Assembly: GCA_951406725.2 (NCBI GenBank)
Contig: OX597828.1
Span: 30,194,001 to 30,258,000, forward strand
Length of the DNA: 64,000 bases
Source of the DNA: Octopus vulgaris
Taxonomy: Eukaryota
Reading direction: 5' to 3'
Shown: piece after piece, positions 1 through 59,890 of the stretch
Numbering within the stretch: position 1 is the first letter of the stretch
Layout of the letters: each line of letters begins with the position of its first letter
Program-made: the position numbers and the translations under genes
Notes under the pieces: generated by a model
Told to the model about the DNA's origin: nothing
The model's database searches: none
The model's input: the letters and a program-made list of their open reading frames with translations, nothing else

Positions 1-1968
1 AATAGAACAAATAAACTAAAAATAGAACAACTAAATTAAAAATAGAACAGCATCTAAAAATAGGACAAATAAACTAAAAATAGAACAGCAACTAAAAATA
101 GGACAAAGAAACTAAAAATAGAACAAGTAAACTGAAAATAGAAAAAATAAACTAAAAATAGGACAAATAAACTAAAAATAGAACAAATGAACTAAAAATA
201 GAACAGCAATAAAAATAGGACAAATAAACTAAAAATAGAACAAATAAAATGAAAATAGAACAGCAACTAAAAATAGGACAAATAAATAAAAAATAGAACA
301 GCAACAAAAAATAGTTATATTCTATATAAATAAATAGAATCTATATATAGAATCTATAAATAGAATCTATAAATGGAATCTATAAATGGAATCTATAAAT
401 AGTATCTATAAATAGAATCTATAAATAGAATCTATAAATAGAATCTATAAATAAATAAATAAATAAATAAATAGAATCTATAAATAGAATCTATAAATAG
501 AATCTATAAATAGAATCTATAAATAGAATCTATAAATAGAATCTATAAATAGAGTCTATAAATAGAATCTATAAATAGTATCTATAAATAGAATCTAAAA
601 ATAGAATCTATAAATAGAATCTATACATAAATAAAAAATAAAAAAATAAATATAAATAGAATCTATAAATAGAATCTATAAATAGAACAAATAAACTAAA
701 AATAGGACAAATAAACTAAAAATAGGAGAAATAAACTAAAAATAGGACAGATAAACTAAAAATAGGACAAATAAACTAAAAATAGAACAGCAACTAAAAT
801 AGGACAAATAAACTAAAAATAGAACAAATAAACTAAAAATAGAACAAATAAACTAAAAATAGAACAAATAAACTAAGAATAGAACGGCAACTGAAAATAG
901 GACAAATAAACTAAAAATAGAAGAAATAAACTAAAAATTGAACAAATAAACTAAAAATAGGACAAATAAACTAAAAATAGAATACATAAACTAAAAATAG
1001 GACAAATAAACTAAAAATAGAACAGCAACTAAAATAGGACAAATAAACTAAAAATAGAACAAATAAACTAAAAATAGAACAACTAAATTAAAAATAGAAC
1101 AGCATCTAAAATTAGGACAAATAAACTAAATATAGAACAGCAACTAAAAATAGGACAAATAAACTAAAAATAGAACAAGTAAACTGAAAATAGAAAAAAT
1201 AAACTAAAAATAGGACAAATAAACCAAAAATAGAACAAATGAACTAAAAATAGAAGAGCAACTAAAAATAGGACAAATAAACTAAAAATAGAACAAATAA
1301 AATGAAAATAGAACAGCAACTAAAAATACAACAAATAAACTAAAAATAGAACAGCAACTAAAAATAGGACAAATAAACTAAAAATAGAACAGCAACTAAA
1401 AATAGTTATATTCTATATAAATAAATAGAATCTATATATAGAATCTATAAATAGAATCTATAAATGGAATCTATAAATAGTATCTATAAATAGAATCTAT
1501 AAATAGAATCTATAAATAGAATCTATAAATAAATAAATAAATAAATAAATAGAATCTATAAATAGAATCTATAAATAGAATCTATAAATAAAATAAATAA
1601 ATAAATAAATATATAGAATCTATAAATAGAATCAATAAATAGAATCTATAAATTGAATCTCTAAATAGAATCTATAAATAGAATCTATAAATAGAATCTA
1701 TAAATAGAAGCTATAAATAGAATCTATAAATAGAATCTATAATTAGTAGCAATAAAATAGAAGCTATAAATAGAAGCTATAAATAGAAGCTATAAATAGA
1801 AGCTATGAATAAATAAAAAAATAAATAAATAATATCTATGAATAGAATCTATAAATAGAATCTATAAATAGAATCTATTAATAGAATCTATAAATATAAT
1901 CTTTAAATAGAATCTATAAATAGTATCTATAAATAGAATCTATAAATAGAATCTATAAATAGAATCTA

Positions 1969-1999
<31 letters not shown>

Positions 2000-2048
2000 A
2001 TAGAATCTATAAATAGTATCTATAAATAGAATCTATAAATAGAATCTA

Positions 2049-2079
<31 letters not shown>

Positions 2080-2245
2080 ATAGAAGCTATAAATAGAATC
2101 TTTAAATAGAATCTATAAATAGAATCTATAAATAGAATCAATAAATAGAATCTATAATTAGTAGCTATTAAATAGAAGCTATAAATAGAATCTAAAATAG
2201 AATCTATAAATAGAATCTATGAATAGAATCTATACATAGAATCTA

Positions 2246-2276
<31 letters not shown>

Positions 2277-2882
2277 ATAGAATCTATAAATAGAATTTAA
2301 AAATAATATCTATAAATAGAATCTATAAATAAATAAACAAATAAATAAATAAATAGAATATATAAATAAAATCTATAAATAGAATCTATAAATAAATAAA
2401 TAAATAAATAAATAAATGAATAGAATCTATTAATAGAATCTTTAAATAGAATCTATAAATAGAATCTATAAATAGAATCTATAAATAGTATCTATAAATA
2501 GAATCTAAAAATAGAATCTATAAATAGAATCTATAAATAAATAAATAAATAAAAAATAAATAAATAGAATATTTAAATAGAATCTATCAATAGAATCTAT
2601 AAATAGAATCTATAAATAGAATCTATAAATAGAATCTATATTTAGTAGCTATTAAATAGAAGCTATAAATAGAATCTATAAATAGAATCTAAAAATAGAA
2701 TCTATAAATAGAATATATATATAAATAAATAAATAAATAAATAAATAGAATCTATAAATAGAATCTATAAATAGAATCTATAAATAGAATCTATAAATAG
2801 AATCTATAAATAAATAAATAAATAAATAAATAAATAGAATCTATAAATAGAATCTATAAATAGAATCTATAAATAGAATCTA

Positions 2883-2913
<31 letters not shown>

Positions 2914-3187
2914 ATAGAATCTATAAATAGAATTTAAAAAGAGAATCTATAAATAGAATCTATAAATAAATAAACAAATGAATAAATAAATAAATAGAAT
3001 ATATAAATAGAATCTATAAATAGAATCTATAAATAGAATCTATAAATAAATAAATAAATAAATAAATAAAGGAATAGAATCTATAAATAGAATCTTTAAA
3101 TAGAATCTATAAATAGAATTTATAAATAGAATCTATAAATAGTATCTATAAATAGAATCTAAAAATAGAATCTATAAATAGAATCTA

Positions 3188-3218
<31 letters not shown>

Positions 3219-5366
3219 ATAGAATCTATAAATAGATTCTATAAATAGAATCTATAAATAGAATCTATAAAGAGAATCTATAAATAGAATCTATAAATAG
3301 AATCTATAAATAAATAAATAAATAAATAAATAAATAGAATCTATAAATAGAATCTTTAAATAGAATCTATAAATAGAATCTATAAATAGAATCTATAAAT
3401 AGAATCTATATTTAGTAGCTATTAAATAGAAGCTATAAATAGAATCTATAAATAGAATCTATAAATAGTATCTATAAATAGAATCTAAAAATAGAATCTA
3501 TAAATAGAATCTATAAATAAATAAATAAATAAATAAATAGAATCTATAAATAGAATCTATAAATAGTATCTATAAATAGAATCTATAAATAGAATCTATA
3601 AATAAATAAATAAATAAATAAATAAATAGAATCTATAAATAGAATCTATAAATAGAAATATAAATAAATAAATAAATAAATAAATAAATAGAATCTATAA
3701 ATAGAATCTATAAATAGAATCTATAAATAGAATCTATAAATAGAATCTATAAATAGTATCTATAAATAGAATCTAAAAATAGAATCTATAAACAGAATCT
3801 ATAAATAAATAAAAAATAAATAAAAAAATAAATAAATAGAATCTATAAATAGAATCTATAAATAGAATCTATAAATAGAATCTATAAATAGAACAAATAA
3901 ACTAAAAATAGGACAAATAAACTAAAAATAGGACAAATAAACTAAAAATAGGACAGTTAAACTAAAAATAGTACAAATAAACTAAAAATGGAACAGCAAC
4001 TAAAATAGGACAAATAAACTAAAAATAGAACAAATAAACTAAGAATAGAACGGCAACTAAAAATAGAACAAATAAACTAAAAATTGAACAAATAAAATAA
4101 AAATAGAACAAATAAACTAAAAATAGAACAAATAAACTAAAAATAGAACAACTAAATTAAAAATAGAACAAATAAATTAAAAATAGAACAGCATCTAAAA
4201 ATAGGACAAATAAACTAAAAATAGAACAGCAACTAAAAATAGGACAAATAAACTAAAAAATAGGACAAGTAAACTGAAAATAGAAAAAATAAACTAAAAA
4301 TAGGACAAATAAACTAAAAATAGAACAAAAGAACTAAAAATAGAACAAGCAACTAAAAATAGGACAAATAAACTAAAAATAGAACAAATAAACTAAAAAT
4401 AGAACAAATAAACTAAAAATAGAACAACTAAATTAAAAATAGAACAGCATCTAAAAATAGGACAAATAAACTAAAAATAGAACAGCAACTAAAAATAGGA
4501 CAAATAAACTAAAAATAGAACAAGTAAACTGAAAATAGAAAAAATAAACTAAAAATAGGATAAATAAACTAAAAATAGAACAAAAGAACTAAAAATAGAA
4601 CAGCAACTAAAAATAGGACAAATAAACTAAAAATAGAACAAATAAAATAAAAATAGAACAGCAACTAAAAATACAACAAATAAACTAAAAATAGAACAAA
4701 TAAACTAAAAATAGAACAGCAACTAAAAATAGTCATATTCTATATAAATAAATAGAATCTATATATAGAATCTATAAATAGAATCTATAAATGGATTCTA
4801 TAAACAGTATCTATAAATAGAATCTATAAATAGAATCTATAAATAAATAAATAAATAAATAAATAAATAGAATCTATAAATAGAATCTATAAACAGAATC
4901 TATAAATAAAATAAATAAATAAATAAATATATAGAATCTATAAATAGAATCAATAAATAGAATCTATAAATTGAATCTTTAAATAGAATCTATAAATAGA
5001 ATCTATAAATAGAATCTATAAATAGAATCTATAATTAGTAGCAATAAAATAGAAGCTATAAATAGAAGCTATGAATAAATAAAAAAATAAATAAATAATA
5101 TCTATGAATAGAATCTATAAATAGAATCTATAAATAGAATCTATTAATAGAATCTATAAATATAATCTATAAATAGAATCTATAAATAGTATCTATAAAT
5201 AGAATCTATAAATAGAATCTATAAATAAGTAAATAAATGAATAAATAAATAAATAGAATCTATAAATAGAATCTTTAAATAGAATCTATAAATAGAATCT
5301 ATAAATAGAATCTATAAATAGTATCTATAAATAGAATCTAAAAATAGAATCTATAAATAGAATCTA

Positions 5367-5397
<31 letters not shown>

Positions 5398-5459
5398 ATA
5401 GAATCTATAAATAGAATCTATAAATAGAATCTATAAATAGAATCTATAAATAGAATCTA

Positions 5460-5490
<31 letters not shown>

Positions 5491-5706
5491 ATAGAATCTA
5501 TAAATAGAATCTATAAATAGTATCTATAAATAGAAACTATAAATAGAATCTATAAATAAATAAATAAATAAATAAATAAATAGAATCTATAAATAGAATC
5601 TATAAATAGAATCTATAAATAGAATCTATAAATAGAATCTATAAATAGAATCTATAAATAGTATCCATAAATAGAATCTAAAAATAGAATCTATAAATAG
5701 AATCTA

Positions 5707-5737
<31 letters not shown>

Positions 5738-7012
5738 ATAGAATCTATAAATAGAATCTATAAATAGAATCTATAAATAGAATCTATAAATAAATAAATA
5801 AATAAATAAATAAATAGAATCTATAAATAGAATCTATAAATAGAATCAATAAATAGAATCTATAAATAGTATCTATAAATAGAATCTATAAATAGAATCT
5901 ATAAATAGAATCTATAAATAAATAAAAAATAAATAAAAAAATAAATAAATAGAATCTATAAATAGAATCTATAAATAGAATCTATAAATAGAATCTATAA
6001 ATAGAATCTATAAATAGAACAAATAAACTAAAAATAGGACAAATAAACTTAAAATTGAACAAATAAACTAAAAATTGGACAAATAAACTAAAAATTGAAC
6101 AGATAAACTAAAAATAGGACAAATAAACTAAAAATATAACAGCAACTAAAATAGGACAAATAAACTTAAAATAGAACAAATAAACTAAAAATAGAACAAC
6201 TAAATTAAAAATAGAACAGCATCTAAAAATAGGACAAATAAACTAAAAATAGAACAGCAACTAAAAAATAGGACAAATAAACTAAAAATAGAACAAGTAA
6301 ACTGAAAATAGAAAAAATAAACTAAAAATAGGACAAATAAACTAAAAATAGAACAAATGAACTAAAAATAGAACAGCAACTAAAAATGGACAAATAAACT
6401 AAAAATAGAACAAATAAAATAAAAATAGAACAGCAACTAAAAATAGGACAAATAAACTAAAAATAGAACAGCAACTAAAAATAGTTATATTCTATATAAA
6501 TAAATAGAATCTATATATAGAATCTATAAATAGAATCTATAAATGGAATCTATAAATAGAATCTATAAATAGAATCTATAAATAAATAAATAAATAAATA
6601 TATAAATAGAATCTATAAATAGAATCTATAAATAGAATCTATAAATAAAATAAATAAATAAATAAATATATAGAATCTATAAATAGAATCAATAAATAGA
6701 ACCTATAAATAGAATCTCTAAATAGAATCTATAAATAGAATCTATAAATAGAATCTATAAATAGAATCTATAAATAGAAGCTATAAATAGAATCTATAAA
6801 TAGAATCTATAATTAGTAGCAATAAAATAGAAGCTATAAATAGAAGCTATAAATAGAAGCTATAAATAAATAAAAAAATAAATAAATAATATCTATAAAT
6901 AGAATCTATAAATAGAATCTATAAATAGAATCTATTAATAGAATCTATAAATATAATCTATAAATAGAATCTATAAATAGCATCTATAAATAGAATCTAT
7001 AAATAGAATCTA

Positions 7013-7043
<31 letters not shown>

Positions 7044-8049
7044 ATAGTATCTATAAATAGAATCTATAAATAGAATCTATAAATAGAATCTATAAATAAA
7101 TAAATAAATAAATAAATAAATAGAATCTATAAATAGAATCTTTAAATAGAATCTATAAATAGAATCTATAAATAGAATCAATAAATATAATCTATAATTA
7201 GTAGCTATTAAATAGAAGCTATAAATAGAATCTAAAAATAGAATCTATAAATAGAATCTATAAATAGAACAAATAAACTAAAAATAGGACAAATAAACTA
7301 AAAATAGGACAAATAAACTAAAAATAGGACAAATAAACTAAAAATAGAACAGCAACTAAAATAGGACAAATAAACTAAAAAAAGAACCAATAAACTAAAA
7401 ATAGAACAAATAAACTAAAAATAGAACAAATAAACTAAGAATAGAACGGCAACTAAAAATAGGACAAATAAACTAAAATTTGAACAAATAAACTAAAAAT
7501 TGAACAAATAAACTAAAGATAGGACAAATAAACTAAAAATAGAACAGATAAACTAAAAATAGGACAAATAAACTAAAAATAGAACAGCAACTAAAATAGG
7601 ACAAATAAACTAAAAATAGAACAAATAAACTAAAAATAGAACAACTAAATTAAAAATAGAACATCATCTAAAAATAGGACAAATAAACTAAAAATAGAAC
7701 AGCAACTAAAAATAGGACAAATAAACTAAAAATAGAACAAGTAAACTGAAAATAGAAAAAATAAACTAAAAATAGGACAAATAAACTAAAAATAGAACAA
7801 ATGAACTAAAAATAGAACAGCAACTAAAAATAGGACAAATAAACTAAAAATAGAACAAATAAAGTAAAAATGGAACAGCAACTAAAAATAGGACAAATAA
7901 ACTAAAAATAGAACAGCAACTAAAAATAGTTATATTCTATATAAATAAATACAATCTATATATAGAATCTATAAATAGAATCTATAAATGGAATCTATAA
8001 ATAGTATCTATAAATAGAATCTATAAATAGAATCTATAAATAGAATCTA

Positions 8050-8080
<31 letters not shown>

Positions 8081-8545
8081 ATAGAATCTATAAATAGAAT
8101 CTATAAATAGAATCTATAAATAAAATAAATAAATAAATAAATATATAGAATCTATAAATAGAATCAATAAATAGAATCTATAAATAGAATCTCTAAATAG
8201 AATCTATAAATAGAATCTATAAATAGAATCTATAAATAGAAGCTATAAATAGAATCTATAAATAGAATCTATAATTAGTAGCAATGAAATAGAAGCTATA
8301 AATAGAAGCTATAAATAGAAGCTATAAATAAATAAAAAATAAATAAATAATATCTATGAATAGAATCTATAAATAGAATCTGTAAATAGAATCTATTAAT
8401 AGATTCTATAAATATAATCTATAAATAGAATCTATAAATAGTATCTATAAATAGAATCTATAAATAGAATCTATAAATAAATAAATAAATAAATAAATAG
8501 AATCTATAAATAGAATCTATAAATAGAATCTATAAATAGAATCTA

Positions 8546-8576
<31 letters not shown>

Positions 8577-8755
8577 ATAGAATCTATAAATAGAATCTTT
8601 AAATAGAATCTATAAATAGAATCTATAAATAGAATCAATAAATAGAATCTATAATTAGTAGCTATTAAATAGAAGCTATAAATAGAATCTAAAATAGAAT
8701 CTATAAATAGAATCTATAAATAGAATCTATGAATAGAATCTATACATCGAATGTG

Positions 8756-8786
<31 letters not shown>

Positions 8787-9047
8787 ATAGAATCTATAAA
8801 TAGAATCTATAAATAAATAAATAAATAAATAAATAAATGAATAGAATCTATAAATAGAATCTTTAAATAGAATCTATAAATAGAATCTATAAATAGAATC
8901 TATAAATAGTATCTATAAATAGAATCTAAAAATAGAATCTATAAATAGAATCTATAAATAAATAAATAAATAAATAAAAAAATAAATAGAATCTATAAAT
9001 AGAATCTATAAATAGAATCTATAAATAGAATCAATAAATAGAATCTA

Positions 9048-9078
<31 letters not shown>

Positions 9079-11401
9079 ATAGAATCTATAAATATATAAA
9101 TAGAATCTATAAATAGTATCTATAAATAGAATCTATAAATAGAATCTATAAATAGAATCTATAAATAGAATCTATAAATAGAATCTATAAATAAATAGAA
9201 TCTATAAATAGAATCTATAAATAGAATCTATAAATAGAATCTATAAATAAATAAATAAATAAAAAAATAAATAAATAAATAGAATCTATAAATAGAATCG
9301 ATAAATAGAATCTATAAATAGAATCTATAAATAGAATCTATAAATAGAATCTATAAATAGAATCTATAAATAGTATCTATAAATAGAATCTAAAAATAGA
9401 ATCTATAAATAGAATCTATAAATAAATAAAAAATAATTAAAAAAATGAAAAAATAGAATCTATAAATAGAATCTATAAATAGAACAAATAAACTAAAAAT
9501 AGGACAAATAAACTAAAAATAGGACAAATAATCTAAAAATAGGACAAATAATTTAAAATAGAACTAAAAATAGGACAAAAACTAAAAATAGAACAAGTAA
9601 ACTAAAAATCGAACAAATAAACTAAAAATAGGTCAAATAAACTAAAAATAAAACCGCAACTAAAAATAGGATAAATAAACTAAAAATAGAACAAGTAAAC
9701 TAAAAATAGATAAAATAAACTAAAAATAGGACAAATAAACTAAAAATAGAACAAATAAACTAAAAATAGAACAGCAACTAAAAATAGGACAAATAAACTA
9801 AAAATAGAACAAATAAAACTAAAAAAAGAATAAATAAACAAAAAATAGGACAAATAAACTAAAAATAAAACAGCAACTAAAAATAGGATAAATAAACTAA
9901 AAATAGAACAAGTAAACTAAAAATAGAAAAAATTAACTAAAAATAGGTCAAATAAACTAATAATAGAACAAATAAACTAAAAATAGAACAGCAACTAAAA
10001 ATAGGACAAATAAACTAAAAATAGAACAAATAAATTAAAAATAGAACAAATAAACTAAAAATAGGACAAATAAACTAAAAATAGGACAAATAAACTAAAA
10101 ATAGAACAGCAACTAAAATAGGACAAATAAACTAAAAATAGAACAAATAAACTAAAAATAGAACAAATAACCTAATAATAGAACAAATAAACTAAGATTA
10201 GAACGGCAACTAAAAATAGGATAAATAAACTAAAAATTGAACAGATAAACTAAAAATAGGACAAATAAACTATAAATAGAACAGCAACTAAAATAGGACA
10301 AATAAACTAAAAATAGAACAAATAAACTAAAAATAGAACAACTAAACTAAAAATAGAAGAGCAACTAAAAATAGGACAAATAAACTAAAAATAGAACAGC
10401 AACTAAAAATAGGACAAATAAACTAAAAATAGAACAAGTAAACTGAAAATAGAAAAAATAAACTAAAAATAGGACAAATAAACTAATAATAGAACAAATA
10501 AACTAAAAATAGAACAGCAACTAAAAATAGGACAAATAAACTAAAAATAGAACAGCAACTAAAAATAGTTATATTCTATATAAATAAATAGAATCTATAT
10601 ATAGAATCTATAAATAGAATCTATAAATGGAATCTATAAATAGTATATATATAAATAGAATCTGTAAATAGAATCTATAAATAGAATCTATAAATAAATA
10701 AATAAATAAATAGAATCTATAAATAGAATCTATAAATAGAATCTATAAATAAAATAAATAAATAAATAAATATATAGAATCTATAAATAGAATCAATAAA
10801 CAGAATCTATAAATAGAATCTATAAATAGAATCTATAAATAGAATCTATAAATAGAATCTATAAATAGAAGCTATAAATAGAATCTATAAATAGAATCTA
10901 TAATTAGTAGCAATAAAATAGAAGCTATAAATAGAAGCTATAAATAGAAGCTATAAATAAATAAATAAATAAATTGTATCTATAAATAGAATCTAAAAAG
11001 AGAATCTATAAATAGAATCTATAAATAGAATCTATAAATAGAATCAATAAATAGAATCTATAAATAGAATCTATAAATAAATAAATAAATATATAAATAA
11101 ATAAATAAATAAATAGAATCTATAAATAGAATCTACAAATAGAATCTATAAATAGAATCTATGAATAAAATCTATAAATATAATCTATAAATAAATAAAC
11201 AAATAAATAAATAAAGAGACTCTATTAATAGAATCTATAAATAGAATCTATAATTAGTAGCTTTTAAAAAGGAGCTATAAATAGAAGCTATAAATAGAAT
11301 CTATAAATAAATAAAAAAATAAATAAATAATATCTATAAATAGAATCTATAAATAGAATCTATAAATAGTATCTATAAATAGAATCTATAAATAGAATCT
11401 A

Positions 11402-11436
<35 letters not shown>

Positions 11437-11899
11437 ATAGAATCTATAAATAGAATCTATAAATAGAATCTATAAATAGAATCTATACATAAATAAATAA
11501 ATAAATAAATAAATAAATAGAATCTATAAATAGAATCTTTAAATAGAATCTATAAATAGAATCTATAAATAGAATCAATAAATATAATCTATAATTAGTA
11601 GCTATTAAAAAGAAGCTATAAATAGAAGCTATAATTAGAAGCTATATATAGAAGCTATAAATAAATAAATAAATATATATATATATTATCCATAAATAGA
11701 ATCTAAAATAGAATCTATAAATAGAATCTATAAATAGAATCGGTAAATAAATAAATAAATAAATAAATAAATAGAATCTATAAATAGATTTTATAAATAG
11801 AATCTATAAATAGAATCTATAAATAAATAAACAAATAAATAAATAAATAAATAGAATATATAAATAGAATCTATAAATAGAATCTATAAATAGAATCTA

Positions 11900-11934
<35 letters not shown>

Positions 11935-12233
11935 ATAGAATCTATAAATAGAATCTTTAAATAGAATCTAAAAATAGAATCTATAAATAGAATCTATAAA
12001 TAGAATCTATAATTAGTAGCTATTAAAAAGAAGCTATAAATAGAAGCTATAATTCGAAGCTATAAATAGAAGCTATAAATAAATAAATATATATATATTA
12101 TCTATAAATAGAATCTAAAATAGAATCTATAAAGAGAATCTATAAATAGAATCTATAAATAGAATCTATAAATAGAATCTATAAATAGTTTCTATAAATA
12201 GAATCTAAAAATAGAATCTATAAATAGAATCTA

Positions 12234-12264
<31 letters not shown>

Positions 12265-12326
12265 ATAGAATCTATAAATAGAATCTATAAATAGAATCTA
12301 TAAATAGAATCTATAAATAGAATCTA

Positions 12327-12357
<31 letters not shown>

Positions 12358-12643
12358 ATAGAATCTATAAATAGAATCATTAAATAGAATCTATAAATAA
12401 AATCTATAAATAGAATCTATAAATAGAATCTATAAATAGAATCTATATTTAGTAGCTATTAAATAGAAGCTATAAATAGAATCTATAAATAGAATCTATA
12501 AATAGTATCTATAAATAGAATCTAAAAATAGAATCTATAAATAGAATCTATAAATAAATATATAAATATATAAATAAATACATAGAATCTATAAATAGAA
12601 TGTATAAATAGTATCTAAAAATAGAATCAATAAATAGAATCTA

Positions 12644-12674
<31 letters not shown>

Positions 12675-12723
12675 ATAGAATCTATAAATAGAATCTATAA
12701 ATAGAATCTATAAATAGAATCTA

Positions 12724-12766
<43 letters not shown>

Positions 12767-13373: not shown

Positions 13374-13408
<35 letters not shown>

Positions 13409-14971: not shown

Positions 14972-15014
<43 letters not shown>

Positions 15015-15446
15015 ATAGAATCTATAAATAGAATCTTTAAATAGAATCTATAAATAGAATCTATAAATAGAATCTATAAATAGAATCTATTAATAGAATC
15101 TATAAATAGAATCTATAAATAGAATCTATAAATATTATCTATAAATAGAATCTAAAAATAGAATCTATAAATAGAATCTATAAATAAATAAAAAATAAAA
15201 AAAAATAAATAAATAGAATCTATAAATAGAATCTATAAATAGAATCTATATTTAGTAGCTATTAAATAGAAGCTATAAATAGAATCTATAAATAGAATCT
15301 ATAAATAGTATCTATAAATAGAATCTAAAAATAGAATCTATAAATAGAATCTATAAATAAATATATAAATATATAAATAAATACATAGGATCTATAAATA
15401 GAATCTATAAATAGTATCTAAAAATAGAATCAATAAATAGAATCTA

Positions 15447-15477
<31 letters not shown>

Positions 15478-15526
15478 ATAGAATCTATAAATAGAATCTA
15501 TAAATAGAATCTATAAATAGAATCTA

Positions 15527-15569
<43 letters not shown>

Positions 15570-17053
15570 ATAGAATCTATAAATAGAATTTTTAAATAGA
15601 ATCTATAAATAGAATCTATAAATAGTATCTATAAATAGAATCTAAAAATAGAATCTATAAATAGAATCTATAAATAGTATCTATAAATAGTATCTATAAA
15701 TAGAATCTATAAATAGAATCTATAAATAAATAAATAAATAAATAGAATCTATAAATAGAATCTATAAATAGTATCTATAAATAGAATCTATAAATAGAAT
15801 CTATAAATAAATAAATAAATAAATAAATAAATAGAATCTATAAATAGAATCTATAAATAGAATCTATAAATAGAATCTATAAATAAATAAATAAATAAAT
15901 AAATAAATAGAATCTATAAATAGAATCTTTGAATAGAATCTATAAATAGAATCTATAAATAGAATCTATAAATAGAATCTATAAATAGAATCTATAAATA
16001 GTATCTATAAATAGAATCTAAAAATAGAATCTATAAATAGAATCTATAAATAAATAAAAAATAAATAAAAAAATGAAGAAATAGAATCTATAAATAGAAT
16101 CTATAAATAGAATCTATAAATAGAACAAATAAACTAAAAATAGGACAAATAAACTAAAAATAGGACAAAATATCTAAAACATAGGACAAATAATTTAAAA
16201 TAGAACTAAAATAGGACAAAAACTAAAAATAGGTCAAATAAACTAAAAATAAAACAGCAACTATAAATAGGATAAATAAACTAAAAATAGAACAAGTAAA
16301 CTAAAAATAGAAAAAATAAACTAAAAATAGGACAAATAAACTAAAAATAGAACAAATAAACTAAAAATAGAACAGCAACTAAAAATAGGACAAATACACT
16401 AAAAATAGGACAAATAAAATAAAAATAGAACAGCAACTAAAAATAGTTATATTCTATATAAATAAATAGAATCTATATATAGAATCTATAAATAGAATCT
16501 ATAAATGGAATCTATAAATAGTATCTATAAATAGAATCTATAAATAGAATCTATAAATAGAATCTATAAATAGAATCTATAAATAAATAAATAAATAAAT
16601 AAATAAATAGAATCTATAAATAGAATCTATAAATAGAATCTATAAATAGAATCTATAAATAGAATCTATAAAGAAATAAATAAATAAATAAATAGAATCT
16701 ATAAATAGAATCATTAAATAGAATCTATAAATAGAATCTATAAATAGAATCTATAAATAGAATCTATAAATAGAATCTATATTTAGTAGCTATTAAATAG
16801 AAGCTATAAATAGAATCTATAAATAGAATCTATAAATAGTATCTATAAATAGAATCTAAAAATAGAATCTATAAATAGAATCTATAAATAAATATATAAA
16901 TATATAAATAAATACATAGAATCTATAAATAGAATCTATAAATAGTATCTAAAAATAGAATCAATAAATAGAATCTATAAATAAATAAATAAATAAATAA
17001 ATAAATAGAATCTATAAATAGAATCTATAAATAGAATCTATAAATAGAATCTA

Positions 17054-17096
<43 letters not shown>

Positions 17097-17526
17097 ATAG
17101 AATCTATAAATAGAATCTTTAAATAGAATCTATAAATAGAATCTATAAATAGAATCTATAAATAGAATCTATTAATAGAATCTATAAATAGAATCTATAA
17201 ATAGAATCTATAAATATTATCTATAAATAGAATCTAAAAATAGAATCTATAAATAGAATCTATAAATAAATAAAAAAAAAAAAAATAAATAAATAGAATC
17301 TATAAATAGAATCTATAAATAGAATCTATATTTAGTAGCTATTAAATAGAAGCTATAAATAGAATCTATAAATAGAATCTATAAATAGTATCTATAAATA
17401 GAATCTAAAAATAGAATCTATAAATAGAATCTATAAATAAATATATAAATATATAAATAAATACATAGGATCTATAAATAGAATCTATAAATAGTATCTA
17501 AAAATAGAATCAATAAATAGAATCTA

Positions 17527-17557
<31 letters not shown>

Positions 17558-17606
17558 ATAGAATCTATAAATAGAATCTATAAATAGAATCTATAAATAG
17601 AATCTA

Positions 17607-17649
<43 letters not shown>

Positions 17650-18256
17650 ATAGAATCTATAAATAGAATTTTTAAATAGAATCTATAAATAGAATCTATA
17701 AATAGAATCTATAAATAGAATCTATTAATAGAATCTATAAATAGAATCTATAAATAGAATCTATAAATATTATCTATAAATAGAATCTAAAAATAGAATC
17801 TATAAATAGAATCTATAAATAAATAAAAAATAAATAAAAAAATAAATAAATAGAATCTATAAATAGAATCTATAAATAGAATCTATAAATAGAACAAATA
17901 AACTAAAAATAGGACAAATGAACTAAAAATAGGATAAATAATCTAAAAATAGGACAAATAATCTAAAATAGAACAGCAACTAAAAATAGGACAAAAAACA
18001 AAAAATAGAACAAGTAAACTAAAAATCGAACAAATAAACTAAAAATAGGTCAAATAAACTAAAAATAGGACAGCAACTAAACCAGGACAAATAATCTAAA
18101 AATAGAACAAATATATTAGAAATAGAACAAATAAACCAAAAATAGAACGGCAACTAAAAATAGGACAAATAAACTAAAAATAGAACAGCAACTAAAAATA
18201 GTTATATTCTATATAAATAAATAGAATCTATAAATAGAATCTATAAATAGAATCTA

Positions 18257-18291
<35 letters not shown>

Positions 18292-19845
18292 ATAGAATCT
18301 ATAAATAGAATCTTTAAATAGAATCTATAAATAGAATCTATAAATAGAATCTATAAATAGAATCTATATTTAGTAGCTATTAAATAGAAGCTATAAATAG
18401 AATCTATAAATAGAATCTATAAATAGTATCTATAAATAGAATCTAAAAATAGAATCTATAAATAGAATCTATAAATAGTATCTATAAATAGTATCTATAA
18501 ATAGAATCTATAAATAGAATCTATAAATAAAAAAATAAATAAATAGAATCTATAAATAGAATCTATAAATAGTATCTATAAATAGAATCTATAAATAGAA
18601 TCTATAAATAAATAAATAAATAAATAAATAAATAGAATCTATAAATAGAATCTATAAATAAATAAATAAATAAATATATAAATAGAATCTATAAATAGAA
18701 TCTTTGAATAGAATCTATAAATAGAATCTATAAATAGAATCTATAAATAGAATCTATAAATAGAATCTATAAATAGTATCTTTAAATAGAATCTAAAAAT
18801 AGAATCTATAAATAGAATCTATAAATAAATAAAAAATAAATAAAAAAATGAAGAAATAGAATCTATAAATAGAATCTATAAATAGAATCTATAAATAGAA
18901 CAAATAAACTAAAAATAGGACAAATAAACTAAAAATAGGACAAAATATCTAAAAAATAGGACAAATAATTTAAAATAGAACTAAAATAGGACAAAAACTA
19001 AAAATAGGTCAAATAAACTAAAAATAAAACAGCAACTATAAATAGGATAAATAAACTAAAAATAGAACAAGTAAACTAAAAATAGAAAAAATAAACTAAA
19101 AATAGGACAAATAAACTAAAAATAGAACAAATAAACTAAAAATAGAACAGCAACTAAAAATAGGACAAATAAACTAAAAATATAACAGCTAAACTAAAAA
19201 TAGGAAAAATTAACTAAAAATAGAACAAATAAACAAAAAATAGAACAGCAACTAAAAATAGGACAAATAAACTAAAAATAGGACAAATAAAATAAAAATA
19301 GAACAGCAACTAAAAATAGTTATATTCTATATAAATAAATAGAATCTATATATAGAATCTATAAATAGAATCTATAAATGGAATCTATAAATAGTATCTA
19401 TAAATAGAATCTATAAATAGAATCTATAAATAGAATCTATAAATAAATAAATAAATAAATAAATAAATAGAATCTATAAATAGAATCTATAAATAGAATC
19501 TATAAATAGAATCTATAAATAGAATCTATAAAGAAATAAATAAATAAATAAATAAATAAATAGAATCTATAAATAGAATCATTAAATAGAATCTATAAAT
19601 AGAATCTATAAATAGAATCTATAAATAGAATCTATAAATAGAATCTATATTTAGTAGCTATTAAATAGAAGCTATAAATAGAATCTATAAATAGAATCTA
19701 TAAATAGTATCTATAAATAGAATCTAAAAATAGAATCTATAAATAGAATCTATAAATAAATATATAAATATATAAATAAATACATAGAATCTATAAATAG
19801 AATCTATAAATAGTATCTAAAAATAGAATCAATAAATAGAATCTA

Positions 19846-19876
<31 letters not shown>

Positions 19877-19925
19877 ATAGAATCTATAAATAGAATCTAT
19901 AAATAGAATCTATAAATAGAATCTA

Positions 19926-19960
<35 letters not shown>

Positions 19961-20312
19961 ATAGAATCTATAAATAGAATCTTTAAATAGAATCTATAAA
20001 TAGAATCTATAAATAGAATCTATAAATAGAATCTATTAATAGAATCTATAAATAGAATCTATAAATAGAATCTATATTTAGTAGCTATTAAATAGAAGCT
20101 ATAAATAGAATCTATAAATAGAATCTATAAATAGTATCTATAAATAGAATCTAAAAATAGAATCTATAAATAGAATCTATAAATAGTATCTATAAATAGT
20201 ATCTATAAATAGAATCTATAAATAGAATCTATAAATAAATAAATAAATAAATAGAATCTATAAATAGAATCTATAAATAGTATCTATAAATAGAATCTAT
20301 AAATAGAATCTA

Positions 20313-20343
<31 letters not shown>

Positions 20344-21390
20344 ATAGAATCTATAAATAGAATCTATAAATAAATAAATAAATAAATATATAAATAGAAT
20401 CTATAAATAGAATCTTTGAATAGAATCTATAAATAGAATCTATAAATAGAATCTATAAATAGAATCTATAAATAGAATCTATAAATAGTATCTATAAATA
20501 GAATCTAAAAATAGAATCTATAAATAGAATCTATAAATAAATAAAAAATAAATAAAAAAATGAAGAAATAGAATCTATAAATAGAATCTATAAATAGAAT
20601 CTATAAATAGAACAAATAAACTAAAAATAGGACAAATAAACTAAAAATAGGACAAAATATCTAAAAAATAGGACAAATAATTTAAAATAGAACTAAAATA
20701 GGACAAAAACTAAAAATAGGTCAAATAAACTAAAAATAAAACAGCAACTATAAATAGGATAAATAAACTAAAAATAGAACAAGTAAACTAAAAATAGAAA
20801 AAATAAACTAAAAATAAGACAAATGAACTAAAAATAGAACAAATAAACTAAAAATAGAACAGCAACTAAAAATAGGACAAATAAACTAAAAATAGGACAA
20901 ATAAAATAAAAATAGAACAGCAACTAAAAATAGTTATATTCTATATAAATAAATAGAATCTATATATAGAATCTATAAATAGAATCTATAAATAAATAAA
21001 TAAATAAATAAATAGAATCTATAAATAGAATCTATAAATAGAATCTATAAATAGAATCTATAAATAGAATCTATAAAGAAATAAATAAATAAATAAATAA
21101 ATAAATAGAATCTATAAATAGAATCATTAAATAGAATCTATAAATAGAATCTATAAATAGAATCTATAAATAGAATCTATAAATAGAATCTATATTTAGT
21201 AGCTATTAAATAGAAGCTATAAATAGAATCTATAAATAGAATCTATAAATAGTATCTATAAATAGAATCTAAAAATAGAATCTATAAATAGAATCTATAA
21301 ATAAATATATAAATATATAAATAAATACATAGAATCTATAAATAGAATCTATAAATAGTATCTAAAAATAGAATCAATAAATAGAATCTA

Positions 21391-21421
<31 letters not shown>

Positions 21422-21470
21422 ATAGAATCTATAAATAGAATCTATAAATAGAATCTATAAATAGAATCTA

Positions 21471-21513
<43 letters not shown>

Positions 21514-22120
21514 ATAGAATCTATAAATAGAATCTTTAAATAGAATCTATAAATAGAATCTATAAATAGAATCTATAAATAGAATCTATTAATAGAATCT
21601 ATAAATAGAATCTATAAATAGAATCTATAAATATTATCTATAAATAGAATCTAAAAATAGAATCTATAAATAGAATCTATAAATAAATAAAAAATAAATA
21701 AAAAAATAAATAAATAGAATCTATAAATAGAATCTATAAATAGAATCTATAAATAGAACAAATAAACTAAAAATAGGACAAATGAACTAAAAATAGGATA
21801 AATAATCTAAAAATAGGACAAATAATCTAAAATAGAACAGCAACTAAAAATAGGACAAAAAACAAAAAATAGAACAAGTAAACTAAAAATCGAACAAATA
21901 AACTAAAAATAGGTCAAATAAACTAAAAATAGAACAGCAACTAAAACAGGACAAATAAACTAAAAATAGAACAAATAAATTAGAAATAGAACAAATAAAC
22001 CAAAAATAGAACGGCAACTAAAAATAGGACAAATAAACTAAAAATAGAACAGCAACTAAAAATAGTTATATTCTATATAAATAAATAGAATCTATAAATA
22101 GAATCTATAAATAGAATCTA

Positions 22121-22155
<35 letters not shown>

Positions 22156-25100
22156 ATAGAATCTATAAATAGAATCTTTAAATAGAATCTATAAATAGAA
22201 TCTATAAATAGAATCTATAAATAGAATCTATATTTAGTAGCTATTAAATAGAAGCTATAAATAGAATCTATAAATAGAATCTATAAATAGTATCTATAAA
22301 TAGAATCTAAAAATAGAATCTATAAATAGAATCTATAATTAGTATCTATAAATAGTATCTATAAATAGAATCTATAAATAGAATCTATAAATAAATAAAT
22401 AAATAAATAGAATCTATAAATAGAATCTATAAATAGTATCTATAAATAGAATCTATAAATAGAATCTATAAATAAATAAATAAATAAATAAATAAATAGA
22501 ATCTATAAATAGAATCTATAAATAGAATCTATAAATAGAATCTATAAATAAATAAATAAATAAATAAATAAATAGAATCTATAAATAGAATCTTTGAATA
22601 GAATCTATAAATAGAATCTATAAATAGAATCTATAAATAGAATCTATAAATAGAATCTATAAATAGTATCTATAAATAGAATCTAAAAATAGAATCTAGA
22701 AATAGAATCTATAAATAAATAAAAAATAAATAAAAAAATGAAGAAATAGAATCTATAAATAGAATCTATAAATAGAATCTATAAATAGAACAAATAAACT
22801 AAAAATAGGACAAATAAACTAAAAATAGGACAAAATATCTAAAAAATAGGACAAATAATTTAAAATAGAACTAAAATAGGACAAAAACTAAAAATAGGTC
22901 AAATAAACTAAAAATAAAACAGCAACTATAAATAGGATAAATAAACTAAAAATAGAACAAGTAAACTAAAAATAGAAAAAATAAACTAAAATAGGACAAA
23001 TAAACTAAAAATAGAACAAATAAACTAAAAATAGAAGAGCAACTAAAAATAGGACAAATAAACTAAAAATAGAACAAATAAACTAAAAATAGAACAAATA
23101 AACAAAAAATAGGACAAATAAACTAAAAATAGAGCATATAAACTAAAAATAGAACAAATAAACTAAAAATAGAACAGCAACTAAAATAGGACAAATAAAC
23201 TAAAAATAGAACAAATAATCTAAAAATAGAATAAATAAACTAGAAATAGAAAAACAACTAAAAAGAGGACAAATAAACTAAAAATAGAACAAGTAAACTA
23301 AAAATAGAAAAAATAAACTAAAAATAGGACAAATAAACTAAAAATAGAACAGATAAACTAAAAATAGAACAAATAAACTAAAAATAGAACAAATAAACTA
23401 AAAATAGAACATATAAACTAAAAATAGAACAAATAAACTAAAAATAGAACAGCAACTAAAAATAGGACAAATAAACTAAAAATAGAACAAATAAACTAAA
23501 AATAGAACAAATAAACTAAAAATAGAACAGCAACTAAAAATAGGACAAATAAACTAAAAATAGAACAAATAAACTAAATAAACAAATAAACTAAAAATAG
23601 AAAAATAAACTAAAAATAGGAACAGCAATAAACTAAAAATAGAACAAATAAACTAAAAATAGAACAGCAACTAAAAATAGGACAAATAAACTAAAAATAG
23701 AACAAATAAACTAAAAATAGAACAAATAAACTTAAAATAGGACAAATAAACTAAAAATAGAACAGATAAAGTAAAGATAGTACAAATAAACTAAAAATAG
23801 AACAGCAACTAAAATAGGTCAAATAAACTAAAAATAGAAGAAATTAACTAAAAATAGAACAAATGAACTAAAAATAGAACAGCAACTAAAAATACGACAA
23901 ATAAACTAAAAATAGAACAGCAACTAAAAATAGTTATATTCTATATAAGTAAATAGAATCTATAAATAGTATCTATACATAGAATCTATAAATAGAATCT
24001 ATAAATAGAATCTATAAATAGAATCTATAAATAGTATCTATAAATAGAATCTATAAATAGAATCTATAAATAGAATCTATAATTAGTAGCTATTAAATAG
24101 AAGGTATAAATAGGAGGTATAAATAGAAGCTATAAATAGAAGCTATAAATAAATAAATAAATAGTATCTATAAATAGAATCTATAAATAAAATCTATAAA
24201 TAGAATCTATAAATAGAATCTATAAATATAATCTATAAATAGTATGTATAAATAGAATCTACAAATAGAATCTATAAATAAATAAATAAATAAATAAATA
24301 GAATCTATAAATAGAATCTATAAATAGAATCTATAAATAGAATCTATAAATAGTTGCAATAAAATAGAAGCTATAAATAGAAGCTATAAATAAATAAATA
24401 GTATCTATAAATAGAATCTAAAAATAGAATCTATAAATAAAATCTAAATATAGAATCTATAAATAAATAAATAAATAAATAAATAGTATCTATAAATAGA
24501 ATCTAAAGATAGAATCTATAAATAGAATCTATAAATAAAATCTATAAATAGAATCTATAAATAGTATCTATAAATAGAATCCATAAATAGAATCTATAAA
24601 TAGAATATATAAATAAATAAATATATAAATAAATAAAAAAATAAATAGAATCTATAAATAGAATCTATAAATAGAATCTATAAATAAAATCTATAAATAG
24701 AATCTATAAATAAATAAATAAATAAATAATTAGTATCTATAAATCGAATCTAAAAATAGAATCTATAAATAGAATCTGTAAATAAAATCTACAAATAGAA
24801 TCTATAAATAGAATCTATAAATAGTATCTATAAATAGAATCTATAAATAGAATCTATAAATAAATAAATAAATAAATAAATAAATAGAATCTATAAATAG
24901 AATCTATAAATAGAATCTATGAATATAATCTATAAATAGAATCTATAAATAGAATCTATAATTAGTAGCTATTAAATAGAAGCAATAAATAGACGCTATA
25001 AATAGAAGCTATATATAGAAGCTATAAATAGAAGCTATAAATAAATAGTTAAATAAATAAATAAATAGTATCTATAAATAGAATCTATAAATAGAATCTA

Positions 25101-25606
25101 TAAATAGAATCTACAAATATCATCTATAAATATAATCTATAAATAGAATCTATAAATTGAATCTATAAATAGTATCTATAAATAGAATCTATAAATTAAT
25201 AAATAAGTAAATAAATAAATAAATAAATAGAATCTATAATTAGAATCTATAAATAGAATCTATAAATTGAATCTATAAATAAATAAACAAATAAATAAAT
25301 AAATAGAATCTATAAATAGAATCTATAAATAGAATCTATAAATAGAATCTATAAATAGAATCTATAAATAGAATCTATAATTAGTAGCTATTAAATAGAA
25401 GCTATAAATAGAAGCTATAAATAGAAGCTATAAATAGAAGTTATAAATAGAAGCTACAAATAAGTAAATAAATAAATAAATGGTATCTATAAATAGAATT
25501 TAAAAATAGAATCTATAAATAGAATCTATAAATAGAATCCATAAATAGAATCTATAAATAGTTTCTATAAATTGAATCTATATATAGAATCTATAAATAG
25601 AATCTA

Positions 25607-25641
<35 letters not shown>

Positions 25642-28170
25642 ATAGAATCTATAAATAGAATCTAGAAATAGAATCTATAAATAGAATCTATAAATAGAAC
25701 AAATAAACAAAAAATAGGACAAATAAACTAAAAATAGGACAAAAAACTAAAAATAGAACAAATAAACTTAAATTAGAACAAATAAACTAAAAATAGAAGA
25801 AATAAACTAAAAATAGAACAGCATTTAAAAATAGAACAAATATACTAAAAATAGAACAGCAACTATAAATAGGACAAATAAACTAAAAATAGAACAAATA
25901 AACTAAAAAGAGAACAAATAAATTAAAAATAGGACAAATAAACTAAAAATAGGACAAATAAACTAAAAATAGAACAAATAAACGAAAAATTGAACAGCAA
26001 CTAAAAATAGAACAAATAAACTAAAAATAGAACAAATAAACTAAAAATAGAACAAATAAACTAAAAATAGAACAAATAAACTAAAAATAGAACTGCAACT
26101 AAAAATAGGACAAATAAACTAAAAATAGAACAAATAAACTAAAAATAAAACAAATAATCTAAAACTAGAACAGCAACTAAAAATAGGACAAATAAACTAA
26201 AAATAGAATAAGTAAACTAAAAATACAACAAATAAACTAAAAATAGGACAATAAACTAAAAATAGAACAAATAAACTAAAAATAGAACAGCAACTAAAAA
26301 TAGAACAAATAAACTAAAAATAGAACAGCAACTAAAAATAGAACAAAAAGACTAAAAATAGAATAGCAACTAAAAATAGGACAAATAAACTAAAAATAGG
26401 ACAACTAAACTAAAAATAGAACAGATAAACTAAAAATAGAACAAATAAACTAAAAATAGAACAGCAAATAAATAGGACAAATAAACTAAAAATAGAACAA
26501 ATAAACTAAAAATAGAACAAATAAACTAAAAATAGAACAGCAACTTAAAATAGGACAAATAAACTAAGAATTGAACAAATAAACTAAAAATAGAACAGAT
26601 AAACTAAAAATAGAAGAAAAAAACTAAAAATAGAACAGCAACTAAAATAGGACAAATAAACTAAAAATAGAAGAAATAAACTAAAAATAGAACAGCAACT
26701 AACAATAGGACAAATATACTAAAAATAGAACAGATAAACTAAAAATAGGACAGATAAACTAAAAATAGAACAAATAAACTAAAAATAGAACAGCAACTAA
26801 AAATAGAACAGCATTTAAAAATAGAACAAATAAACTAAAAATAGAACAAATAATCTAAAACTAGAACAGCAACTAAAAATAGGACAAATAAACTAAAAAT
26901 AGAATAAGTAAACTAAAAATACAACAAATAAACTAAAAATAGGACAATAAACTAAAAATAGAACAAATAAACTAAAAATAGAACAGCAACTAAAAATAGA
27001 ACAAATAAACTAAAAATAGAACAGCAACTAAAAATAGAACAAAAAGACTTAAAATAGAACAGAAACTAAAAATAGGACAAATAAACTAAAAATAGGACAA
27101 CTAAACTAAAAATAGAACAGATAAACTAAAAATAGAACAAATAAACTAAAAATAGAACAGCAAATAAATAGGACAAATAAACTAAAAATAGAACAAATAA
27201 ACTAAAAATAGAACAAATAAACTAAAAATAGAACAGCAACTTAAAATAGGACAAATAAACTAAGAATTGAACAAATAAACTAAAAATAGAACAAATAAAC
27301 TAAAAATAGGACAAATAAACTAAAAATAGAACAGATAAACTAAAAATAGAAGAAATAAACTAAAAATAGAACAGCAACTAAAATAGGACAAATAAACTAA
27401 AAATAGAACAAATAAACTAAAAATAGAACAGCAACTAACAATAGGACAAATATACTAAAAATAGAACAGATAAACTAAAAATAGGACAGATAAACTAAAA
27501 ATAGAACAAATAAACTAAAAATAAAAAAATAGAACACAAAAAATTAAAAATAGAACAAATAAACTAAAAATAGAACAGTAACTAAAAATAGGACAAATAA
27601 ACTAAAAATAGAACAAATAAACTATAAATAGAATAAATAATCTAAAAATAGAACAGCAACTAAAAATAGGACAAATAAACTAAAAATAGAACAAATAAAC
27701 TAAAAATGGAACAAATAAACTAAAAATAGAACAGCAACTAAAAATAGGACAAATAAAGTAAAAATAGAACAAATAAACTAAAAATAGAACAAATAAACTA
27801 AAAATAGAACAGCAACTAAAAATAGAACAAATAAACTAAAAATAGAACATCAACTAAAAATAGGACAAATAAACTAAAAATAGATCAGCAACTAAAATAG
27901 GACAAATAAACTAAAAATAGAACAGCAACTAAAAATAGAACAAATAAGCTAAAAATAGAACAGCTACTAAAAATAGAACAAATAAACTAAAAATTGAACA
28001 AATAAACTAAAAATAGAACAGCAACTAAAAATAGAACAAATAAACTAAAAATAGAACATCAACTAAAAATAGAACAGCAACTAAAAATAGAACAGCAAGT
28101 AAAAATAGAACAGCAAGTAAAAATAGGACAAATAAACTAAAAATAGAACAGCAATTAAAATTAGGACAAA
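1..28170. repeat. Compound satellite array. A blocks of 20-bp (AAATAAACTAAAAATAG[A/G]AC) and 18-bp (AGCAACTAAAAATAG[A/G]AC) units alternate with B blocks of 13-bp (AAATAGAATCTAT) units plus (TAAA)n. Open at the left edge.
   Basis: Read directly. There are 15 A blocks and 14 B blocks, with a strongly A-rich plus strand and no ORF in the track. The array decays into unique A-rich sequence at ~28,160. Confidence 0.98.

Positions 28171-31666: not shown

Positions 31667-31710
<44 letters not shown>

Positions 31711-46646: not shown

Positions 46647-46808
<162 letters not shown>

Positions 46809-59674: not shown

Positions 59675-59890
<216 letters not shown>

Follow-up and report, generated by a model that had tools for sequence, protein, structure and literature searches.

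The first 28.2 kb of the window (the whole 64,000-nucleotide stretch of Octopus vulgaris DNA analysed here, from contig OX597828.1) belong to a tandem satellite array of exact MEF2 boxes. We interpret this array as one module of a dispersed patchwork family in which factor binding likely favoured the founding or spreading of units, a reading to which we give about an even chance. Judging by the repeats themselves, protein binding is likely to have helped such sequences arise and spread.

An array of exact MEF2 boxes

The satellite array totals 47,726 bp (47.7 kb), running from G000:C15:30174450 to about position 28174 of the window, with 19.5 kb outside the window on its upstream side; a preliminary description had put its extent at 28 kb. 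The features to which we refer are as follows.

1..28174, + strand: MEF2-box monomer array, downstream 28.2 kb (remainder at G000:C15:30174450-30194000, upstream of the window)
301..25700, + strand: alternating-block region, with 14 blocks of 13-bp units containing tetramer slippage runs, and mixed 18-/20-bp blocks of 0.3-1.2 kb
25701..28174, + strand: terminal block of 18/20-bp units, 2.45 kb, with the A-tract core in nearly every unit
13511..15195, + strand: longest exact internal duplication, 1,685 bp, copy 1
15593..17277, + strand: the same 1,685-bp exact duplication, copy 2
28175..31630, - strand: truncated dispersed element with a GIY-YIG-like frame (30686-31423), which sets the right border and lies outside the satellite

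The monomer classes of 13, 18 and 20 bp are as previously described, and the same core is kept across the three lengths despite differing spacers. Over positions 1-28170 and at 50-bp resolution, the 14 13-mer blocks total 18.2 kb and the 18/20-mer blocks 10.0 kb, an alternation derived from piece counts alone. Tetramer slippage runs make up ~3.3 kb of the array, and higher-order duplications are offset by about 2.1 and 12.2 kb. It is satellite DNA, arranged head to tail over many kilobases and duplicated at a higher order, and the 1,685-bp exact duplication is a sign of recent unequal exchange. Of two long exact patterns searched for, one matched once and the other three times.

Using the MEF2 consensus given in the available text of PMC7470950 and PMC3250504, we counted 1,168 strict CTA(W)4TAG sites in positions 1-28170 and 1 in the remaining 36 kb of the window; loose YTA(W)4TAR sites in 1-28170 numbered 1,319. 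The whole 47.7-kb array holds 1,907 strict and 2,147 loose sites. Base-shuffled versions of the array (n = 200) contained a mean of 1.9 strict sites and a maximum of 8. The earlier identification of the units as exact MEF2 boxes, and the rough estimate of a thousand or more sites, are therefore borne out. Two cores, neither on the minus strand, supply 708 and 399 of the 1,168 strict sites, and across all fetched regions they account for 7,331 of 7,784. One of them, the A-tract core (399 copies in 1-28170), is the SELEX optimum: it is reported as the highest-affinity 10-mer in a MEF2B SELEX-seq study (PMC7470950, available text) and as bound by flatworm Mef2 in EMSA (PMC3250504, available text). 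The host has two MEF2-type genes or exons and a conserved, near-human MADS-MEF2 domain: one of the two is identical to human MEF2A at 65 of 68 residues in a comparison covering residues 18-85, with residues 1-17 in another exon. Host MEF2 is predicted to bind the array where chromatin permits.

If binding protected the site within each monomer, as the preliminary description had suggested, the core should mutate more slowly than the spacer. We collapsed identical contexts, permuted columns of the same base and compared the count of intact MEF2 sites with expectation. Intactness was not above expectation in the MEF2 units (pooled P 0.34, 0.97 and 0.25), with one of nine subsets nominally significant (P 0.04). 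Type-matched allele ranks tilted in the direction opposite to protection (P 0.95 and 0.88), and the substitution profile was flat across core and spacer. Single monomers in the array mutate regardless of the MEF2 site, which is the sequence part of what the preliminary description had named as refuting its idea.

A patchwork family of factor-site satellites

Nine of the 42 fetched regions contain more than 20 strict MEF2 sites, and the window array is one of the nine. At other loci, MEF2 units run straight into other short satellites, built of units that match TCF, TEAD, POU, Grainyhead, NRF1, STAT and ONECUT sites; the preliminary description had overlooked that the MEF2 satellite, its boxes rightly recognised, forms a single module within a family covering several factors. 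Direct joins with MEF2 units were seen for a POU-type unit at 6 loci, a TEAD 59-mer at 3, a Grainyhead-type unit at 3, a TEAD 9-mer at 2 and an NRF1-type unit at 2, in a sample biased by the two query types with which loci were located. MEF2 units abut these unrelated units without a gap and switch strand, and some composite junctions are repeated on different contigs or far apart within one contig. Junction overlap was measurable in the 19 of 114 junction strings that were clean enough, and breakpoint choice favours overlap. Two patchworks contain degenerate telomeric tracts beside their TCF/TEAD blocks, and another such tract, a short one, sits where TEAD-59 and MEF2 units meet; the patchworks yielded no mobile-element ends in common. 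Words of the MEF2 array occur in runs of four organism labels at shares of at least 0.2. The listed holders of these words include no RNA, which has no bearing on expression either way, and neither array border is bridged by any listed contig from other individuals, which gives no verdict on presence of the insertion. We found no paper on these satellites in a search that covered subscription journals thinly.

Nine of 14 linked unit families match one of ten motifs, which were chosen post hoc after the units had been seen, most of them from general knowledge rather than papers; two of eight unlinked repeats match a motif as well. When matches were weighted by specificity, decoy libraries reached the score of the 9/14 families in none of 200 trials with 100 motifs, in 1 of 80 with 200 motifs and in none of 80 with 300, and the excess was gone at 500 motifs (P 0.18). 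By plain counts it was gone at 300 decoys (P 0.44), and for the late-found families alone the excess was gone at 200-300 decoy motifs (P 0.075, 0.34).

Three sister units vary in a site-sparing manner. The NRF1-type unit, discovered after the factor-binding idea had already been recorded, carries the exact consensus of PMC10810270, and the host has an NRF1 gene. Nine of its 10 site positions vary by 0-3%, versus 5-39% for spacer G/C, CpGs included (P 0.0025; 2 loci), and the site is a palindrome, which strand-switch repair could likewise preserve. The TCF core, which is non-palindromic, is conserved over 32 loci (0 of 400 permutations), and the TEAD 59-mer site is conserved at P 0.0075. The other 8 of 11 sister-unit tests were non-significant: Helper 0.21, POU 0.11, TEAD 9-mer 0.31, Grainyhead 0.33, ONECUT 0.46, STAT 0.24, kappaB 0.55 and CREB 0.84. 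For the POU unit, an earlier signal (P 0.035) weakened to 0.11 once more loci were added.

Origin and spread of the repeats

The array grew in place, as the slippage runs and the ~2.1- and 12.2-kb duplications show, and at other loci its units are seen abutting unrelated ones, flipping strand and, in some cases, forming recurrent composite junctions. We propose that pieces relocate through recombination or repair synthesis, switching template where short homologies allow, and that arrays bound by factors may be more open or clustered and hence more frequent donors and recipients. Selection would then act on founding units and on whole arrays, and its mark would be confined to units with old sub-variants that have been sorting for long enough (TCF, NRF1 and TEAD 59-mer). 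Any MEF2 titration would arise incidentally from all arrays together rather than from the window array. We tentatively entertain, as rather less than probable, a selfish form of this process, in which satellites win by mimicking the best sites of host factors, so that their arrays are opened and clustered by the bound factors, swap blocks and seed new loci.

It is somewhat unlikely, in our judgement, that the array is a neutral AT-rich satellite, a short quasi-palindromic unit that slippage and unequal exchange amplified and that resembles a MEF2 box only incidentally. Any short unit will resemble some known motif, and the post hoc motifs, the large decoy libraries matching equally many families and the matches among unlinked repeats all fit such an origin, as do the flat MEF2 profile and the 13-mer, which is self-complementary at 10 of 13 positions and often changes strand at other loci. 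However, one core is kept over three monomer lengths with different spacers, and the weighted decoy test is significant up to 300 motifs. The NRF1, TCF and TEAD-59 units show site-specific conservation, with a TCF site that is no palindrome, and whole-unit self-complementarity is not supported as a common cause, rising above that of shuffled sequence in just one unit of 17. A chance MEF2 match is also less likely because the family is wider and multi-factor.

Retention by the host as a sink or platform that buffers or concentrates MEF2 and co-repressors, as first suggested, seems improbable to us. It has precedents in the available text of three sources: TEAD is among the factors that bind human Satellite 3 (PMC11526998), fly satellites have been proposed as an Hsf sink (10.64898/2026.08.24.746661), and HDAC4 bridges two MEF2-bound DNAs (PMC10954479). 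In each of 4 runs the summed contig depth, which is not a copy number, was thousands-fold higher for the satellite than for unique flank, and the satellite may therefore be under-represented in the assembly. Yet the MEF2 site is without a purifying signal, and 22 strict sites in 570 kb across the other 33 regions imply an estimated ~110,000 genome-wide. By this arithmetic the array holds less than 2% of strict sites and all nine loci ~7%; the array alone is therefore a weak MEF2 sink. Overall, the exact boxes of the preliminary description stand, and its site constraint is not supported. The MEF2 arrays are moreover scattered, with unrelated flanks. Of 159 stop-to-stop frames lying up to ~40 kb away on either side, 147 were compared with Pfam, giving one reverse-transcriptase match and no non-transposon domain, although small exons would escape and an intronic position is possible; three further flanking frames and part of a fourth gave one reverse-transcriptase match, and positions 27000-64000 had no Rfam match to a structured RNA. 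We consider it very unlikely that the array arose by swelling of an internal or terminal repeat within a mobile element, such as a site-carrying Helitron or the adjoining element, which is likely Penelope-like. The element end meets the array end nearly to the base, and Caenorhabditis Helitrons carry clustered heat-shock elements (PMC6927752, available text), but the array is absent from all 19 other copies of the element, 15 of which follow an (AT)n run, and only one other of the 42 regions has the element, at least ~1.6 kb outside its array. No flank common to the arrays appeared among the matches listed, and this origin is largely refuted. There is equally little likelihood of a centromeric or subtelomeric structural satellite. 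The largest MEF2 array observed spans at least 100 kb from the first base of contig C18, its inner end open, and telomeric tracts lie inside two patchworks; against this, the window array lies mid-contig (30.2 of 78.3 Mb), and large arrays were found on few contigs (at least C1, C8, C13, C15, C17 and C18), at least three of them on C18, rather than one major array per chromosome, these counts being lower bounds.

Known systems and significance

Human Satellite 3 is likewise a tandem satellite dense in motifs of signalling-effector factors, a character shared by the 9/14 families found here with post hoc motifs. According to the available text of PMC11526998, it is one satellite of megabases with demonstrated binding, whereas the Octopus family, known from sequence alone, comprises many unrelated 9-59-bp units, each matching another factor, in spliced patchworks of 2-100 kb at dozens of loci. 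NGAAN satellites in Hsf nuclear stress bodies also mimic a factor site, with sequestration proposed; as that source presents them (10.64898/2026.08.24.746661, available text), they involve a 5-bp motif, a single factor and a functional test, while in Octopus 10-bp optimal sites for many factors are read from the DNA. In ALT cells, variant repeats bound by nuclear receptors are mixed with telomeric repeats, as factor-site repeats are interspersed with telomeric repeats here. These repeats move by break-induced replication and are thought to insert via the bound factor (PMC7073516, available text). By analogy, such targeted insertion could be the nearest model for how the Octopus family spread. 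The ALT case, per the same review, is somatic, from one cancer cell line and limited to telomeric hexamers; the Octopus family is inherited, multi-family and interstitial, and factor-guided targeting is here a conjecture. Caenorhabditis Helitron heat-shock elements are likewise clustered factor sites dispersed genome-wide, but are transposon-carried with occupancy shown (PMC6927752, available text), and we found no carrier element in Octopus.

These results address the open question of why certain short sequences turn into satellites: in this genome a dozen units that are unrelated to each other match conserved factors' sites, and some, though not the MEF2 units, vary in a site-sparing way. 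Because the host's MEF2 domain differs little from the human one, protein-binding selection of satellites is directly testable with existing reagents. Should the selfish form hold, blocks would also be exchanged with telomeric repeats, the genome would be a natural selection experiment for factor sites, and the total size of the patchwork library (MEF2, Wnt, Hippo, POU, NRF1 and others) could tune free factor levels. Were the arrays occupied, the number of their copies could shift the dose of several developmental regulators together.

The MEF2-box array and its surroundings

A motif scan of window positions 1-28170 returned 1,168 strict CTA(W)4TAG and 1,319 loose YTA(W)4TAR matches, as against a mean of 1.9 strict sites in 200 base shuffles of the array and one strict match in the other 36 kb of the window, which spans positions 30194001-30258000 of contig C15. 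The preliminary description had placed a MEF2-box core throughout this stretch and roughly estimated a thousand or more sites; the count bears out both, and its three monomer classes (13, 18 and 20 bp) are just as given there. The 28-kb satellite that it described is present over 1-28170 but is longer than was thought: the array starts 19.5 kb upstream of the window, where a short (AT)n run precedes it, and measures 47,726 bp with 1,907 strict sites. Two cores, different at position 4 alone and exclusively plus-strand in the window, make up 708 and 399 of the 1,168 strict sites, and 14 blocks of 13-mers alternate with blocks of 18/20-mers. Array words occur at shares of at least 0.2 in seven runs with four organism labels, so the array is not an assembly artefact.

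Rare 60-mers shared within the array reveal duplication offsets of ~2.1-2.2 and 12.2 kb. Exact repeats inside it reach 1,685 bp, compared with at most 150 bp for exact matches between the window array and any of eight other loci. We conclude that the array expanded locally, starting from a seed. The following features lie in its surroundings (G000, the assembly; C-numbers, its contigs; L-numbers, fetched regions).

G000:C15:30191635-30192050 (L031): SINE-like insertion of ~420 bp, splitting the array upstream of the window
Window 28175-31630, minus strand: abundant dispersed element at the array's right end, with a GIY-YIG-like frame at 30686-31423
Window 31634-32413: dispersed repeat, also present ~75 kb upstream in a copy that is 83.5% alike
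Window 46620-48391, plus strand: two overlapping frames of a LINE-type reverse transcriptase (RVT_1 in Pfam, E 3.6e-25)
Window 59578-59676 and 62638-62683: short AT-rich tandem tracts, by eye like a 24-bp unit that at other places is linked to TCF blocks
Window 62713-63627, minus strand: second frame, without Pfam match, its end resembling frame 30686-31423 by eye

The element at the right end is presumably Penelope-like. Its minus-strand frame 30686-31423 gave Atlas features at 0.97, with unnamed and GIY-YIG clusters, and nothing over the Pfam cut-off. Since the array is beside 0 of 19 other copies of this element, 15 of which follow an (AT)n run, we rejected it as array carrier and treat it as a neighbour of the array. 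The flanking frames searched (147 of 159) showed no host gene domain, and no Rfam family matched in the array's right flank.

A dispersed patchwork of linked units

Genome searches reached 42 regions (1.05 Mb in total), a biased sample picked around MEF2-, TCF- and Grainyhead-type matches. MEF2-box arrays occur in nine of them, the largest taking up the first 100 kb of contig C18, and outside the window MEF2 units abut unrelated units directly. Sister units are labelled by what we take to be TEAD, POU, Grainyhead, STAT, kappaB, ONECUT and CREB motifs; for TCF, Helper, MEF2 and NRF1 we used published consensuses.

Units joined directly to MEF2 units
21-mer with POU octamer: 6 loci
59-mer with TEAD site: 3 loci
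9-mer with TEAD site: 2 loci
10-mer with Grainyhead-type site: 3 loci
22-mer with NRF1 site: 2 loci
AT-rich 14-mer: 1 locus

Via these units the MEF2 family links to a TCF-type 22-mer (32 loci, e.g. L047:1251-2200) and to others that carry STAT/kappaB-, ONECUT- and CREB-like sites. The HMG site of the 22-mer matches SCTTTGATS at 8 of 9 positions, and the unit also matches the nematode Helper consensus GCCRAnW (PMC3916239); spacing rules are described in PMC4154663. Degenerate telomeric-repeat tracts within two patchworks (G000:C8:56728200-56729400; C15:40661100-40666700) adjoin blocks of the TEAD, Grainyhead-type and TCF units.

Certain junctions turn up repeatedly, TEAD-9/TCF at three separate loci and Grainyhead/POU at two. 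The 19 clean junctions of 114 have a median overlap of 3 bases versus 1 in a random null, in an analysis whose breakpoint choice favours overlap, and no flank common to arrays appeared among the matches listed. Two large patchworks, G000:C18:1-100000 (L114-L123), which begins at the first contig base and continues at 100 kb, and C18:20237600-20311200, share a similar block order, in which an NRF1-site unit accompanied by a 152-bp unit is followed by MEF2 units and these by POU-type units. Both are candidates for source arrays. A five-copy 19-bp minisatellite at G000:C1:15064016-15064110 (L037), 12 kb from a large array, combines a strict MEF2 box with an unrelated spacer.

Site conservation and motif matches

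To compare sites with spacers, arrays were tiled by whole units rather than anchored on the core, in-register monomers were retained, identical 45-bp contexts were collapsed, and columns were permuted among same-base positions, thereby preserving mutation bias and column history. Fixed core positions of MEF2 units vary by 2-5% in most columns, similar to the spacer. Pooled over loci, the fraction of monomers with an intact MEF2 site is 0.78, 0.73 and 0.78 versus 0.77, 0.78 and 0.76 expected, and protection was not detected (P 0.34, 0.97 and 0.25); one of nine subsets was nominal (13-mer, C18 set, 0.04). Type-matched allele ranks also lean against protection. Pointing towards it, the site is spared by the commonest alleles, which fall at position 11 of the 13- and 20-mer and at position 13 of the 13-mer, and apart from position 4 and the spacer the three unit lengths are identical. 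The comparison that the preliminary description had proposed thus finds the MEF2 core no better kept than the spacer. A flat profile is expected of a neutral satellite and also of a young array selected as a whole; it therefore lowers the claim of constraint on the MEF2 site, which may still be bound.

Under the same scheme, the fraction with an intact NRF1 site is 0.82 versus 0.38 expected (249 monomers from 2 loci; P 0.0025). The corresponding values are 0.86 versus 0.66 for the TCF core (32 loci; 0 of 400 permutations) and 0.93 versus 0.79 for the 59-mer's TEAD site (3 loci; P 0.0075). Within the TCF 22-mer it is the HMG site that is conserved; eight other sister-unit tests, that of Helper among them, were not significant.

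A match to one of ten motifs occurs in nine of the 14 linked families, compared with two of eight unlinked repeats. Against decoy libraries of letter-shuffled motifs, in which palindromes stay palindromic, the plain count was equalled or exceeded in 1% of trials with 100 motifs and in 44% with 300. A specificity-weighted score was reached in 0/200 trials at 100 motifs, 1/80 at 200, 0/80 at 300 and 18% of trials at 500. Restricted to the families found late, after the idea had formed, the weighted values were 1.5%, 7.5%, 34% and 61% at 100, 200, 300 and 500. The excess is real for libraries no larger than a few hundred motifs, and not overwhelming.

Predicted binding and possible routes of spread

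The host genome has two MEF2-type exons, one of them 65/68 identical to human MEF2A 18-85, together with one SRF-type gene on C10 and an NRF1 homologue.

G000:C4:77301786 and C4:15049268 (L052, L053): the two MEF2-type genes

The A-tract core is the top MEF2B SELEX-seq 10-mer (PMC7470950) and is shifted by schistosome Mef2 (PMC3250504). With a near-human domain and such a core, host MEF2 is predicted to bind the array as naked DNA.

How such a family arose may be read in several ways. A MEF2 sink selected by the host, as the preliminary description envisaged, appears improbable: 22 strict sites in 570 kb of the other 33 regions extrapolate to ~110,000 across the 2.8-Gb assembly, of which the window array holds <2% and the nine loci ~7%, making this array a modest sink. 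On the other side, the satellite's contig depth exceeds that of unique flank by thousands-fold in 4/4 runs, a hint rather than a measure that much of the satellite remains unassembled. A neutral satellite with an incidental MEF2 match would be expected to show the flat core and spacer profile seen here, an expectation shared by a young array selected as a whole, and we consider this account rather unlikely.

We give an even chance to a satellite family that spread by recombination or repair, its founding units filtered by factor binding. Local growth, direct joins of unrelated units, strand changes and recurring composite pieces are observed, and no carrier element was found for the MEF2-array family. 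Pieces may move through recombination or repair synthesis with template switching; if this movement were biased to factor-bound arrays, binding would filter the founding units. MEF2 arrays could be gathered by HDAC4 bridging MEF2-bound DNAs (PMC10954479), and the nearest model for such spread is the factor-bound variant repeats of ALT telomeres (PMC7073516).

Factor-binding satellites (PMC11526998; 10.64898/2026.08.24.746661) and transposon-borne site clusters (PMC6927752) are already known; incomplete literature searches returned nothing on the present satellites. The MEF2 site itself carries no protective signal and function is only putative, but the family as a whole is real and surprising. 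What is new is that many units, every one of them fitting another factor, make up a dispersed patchwork.
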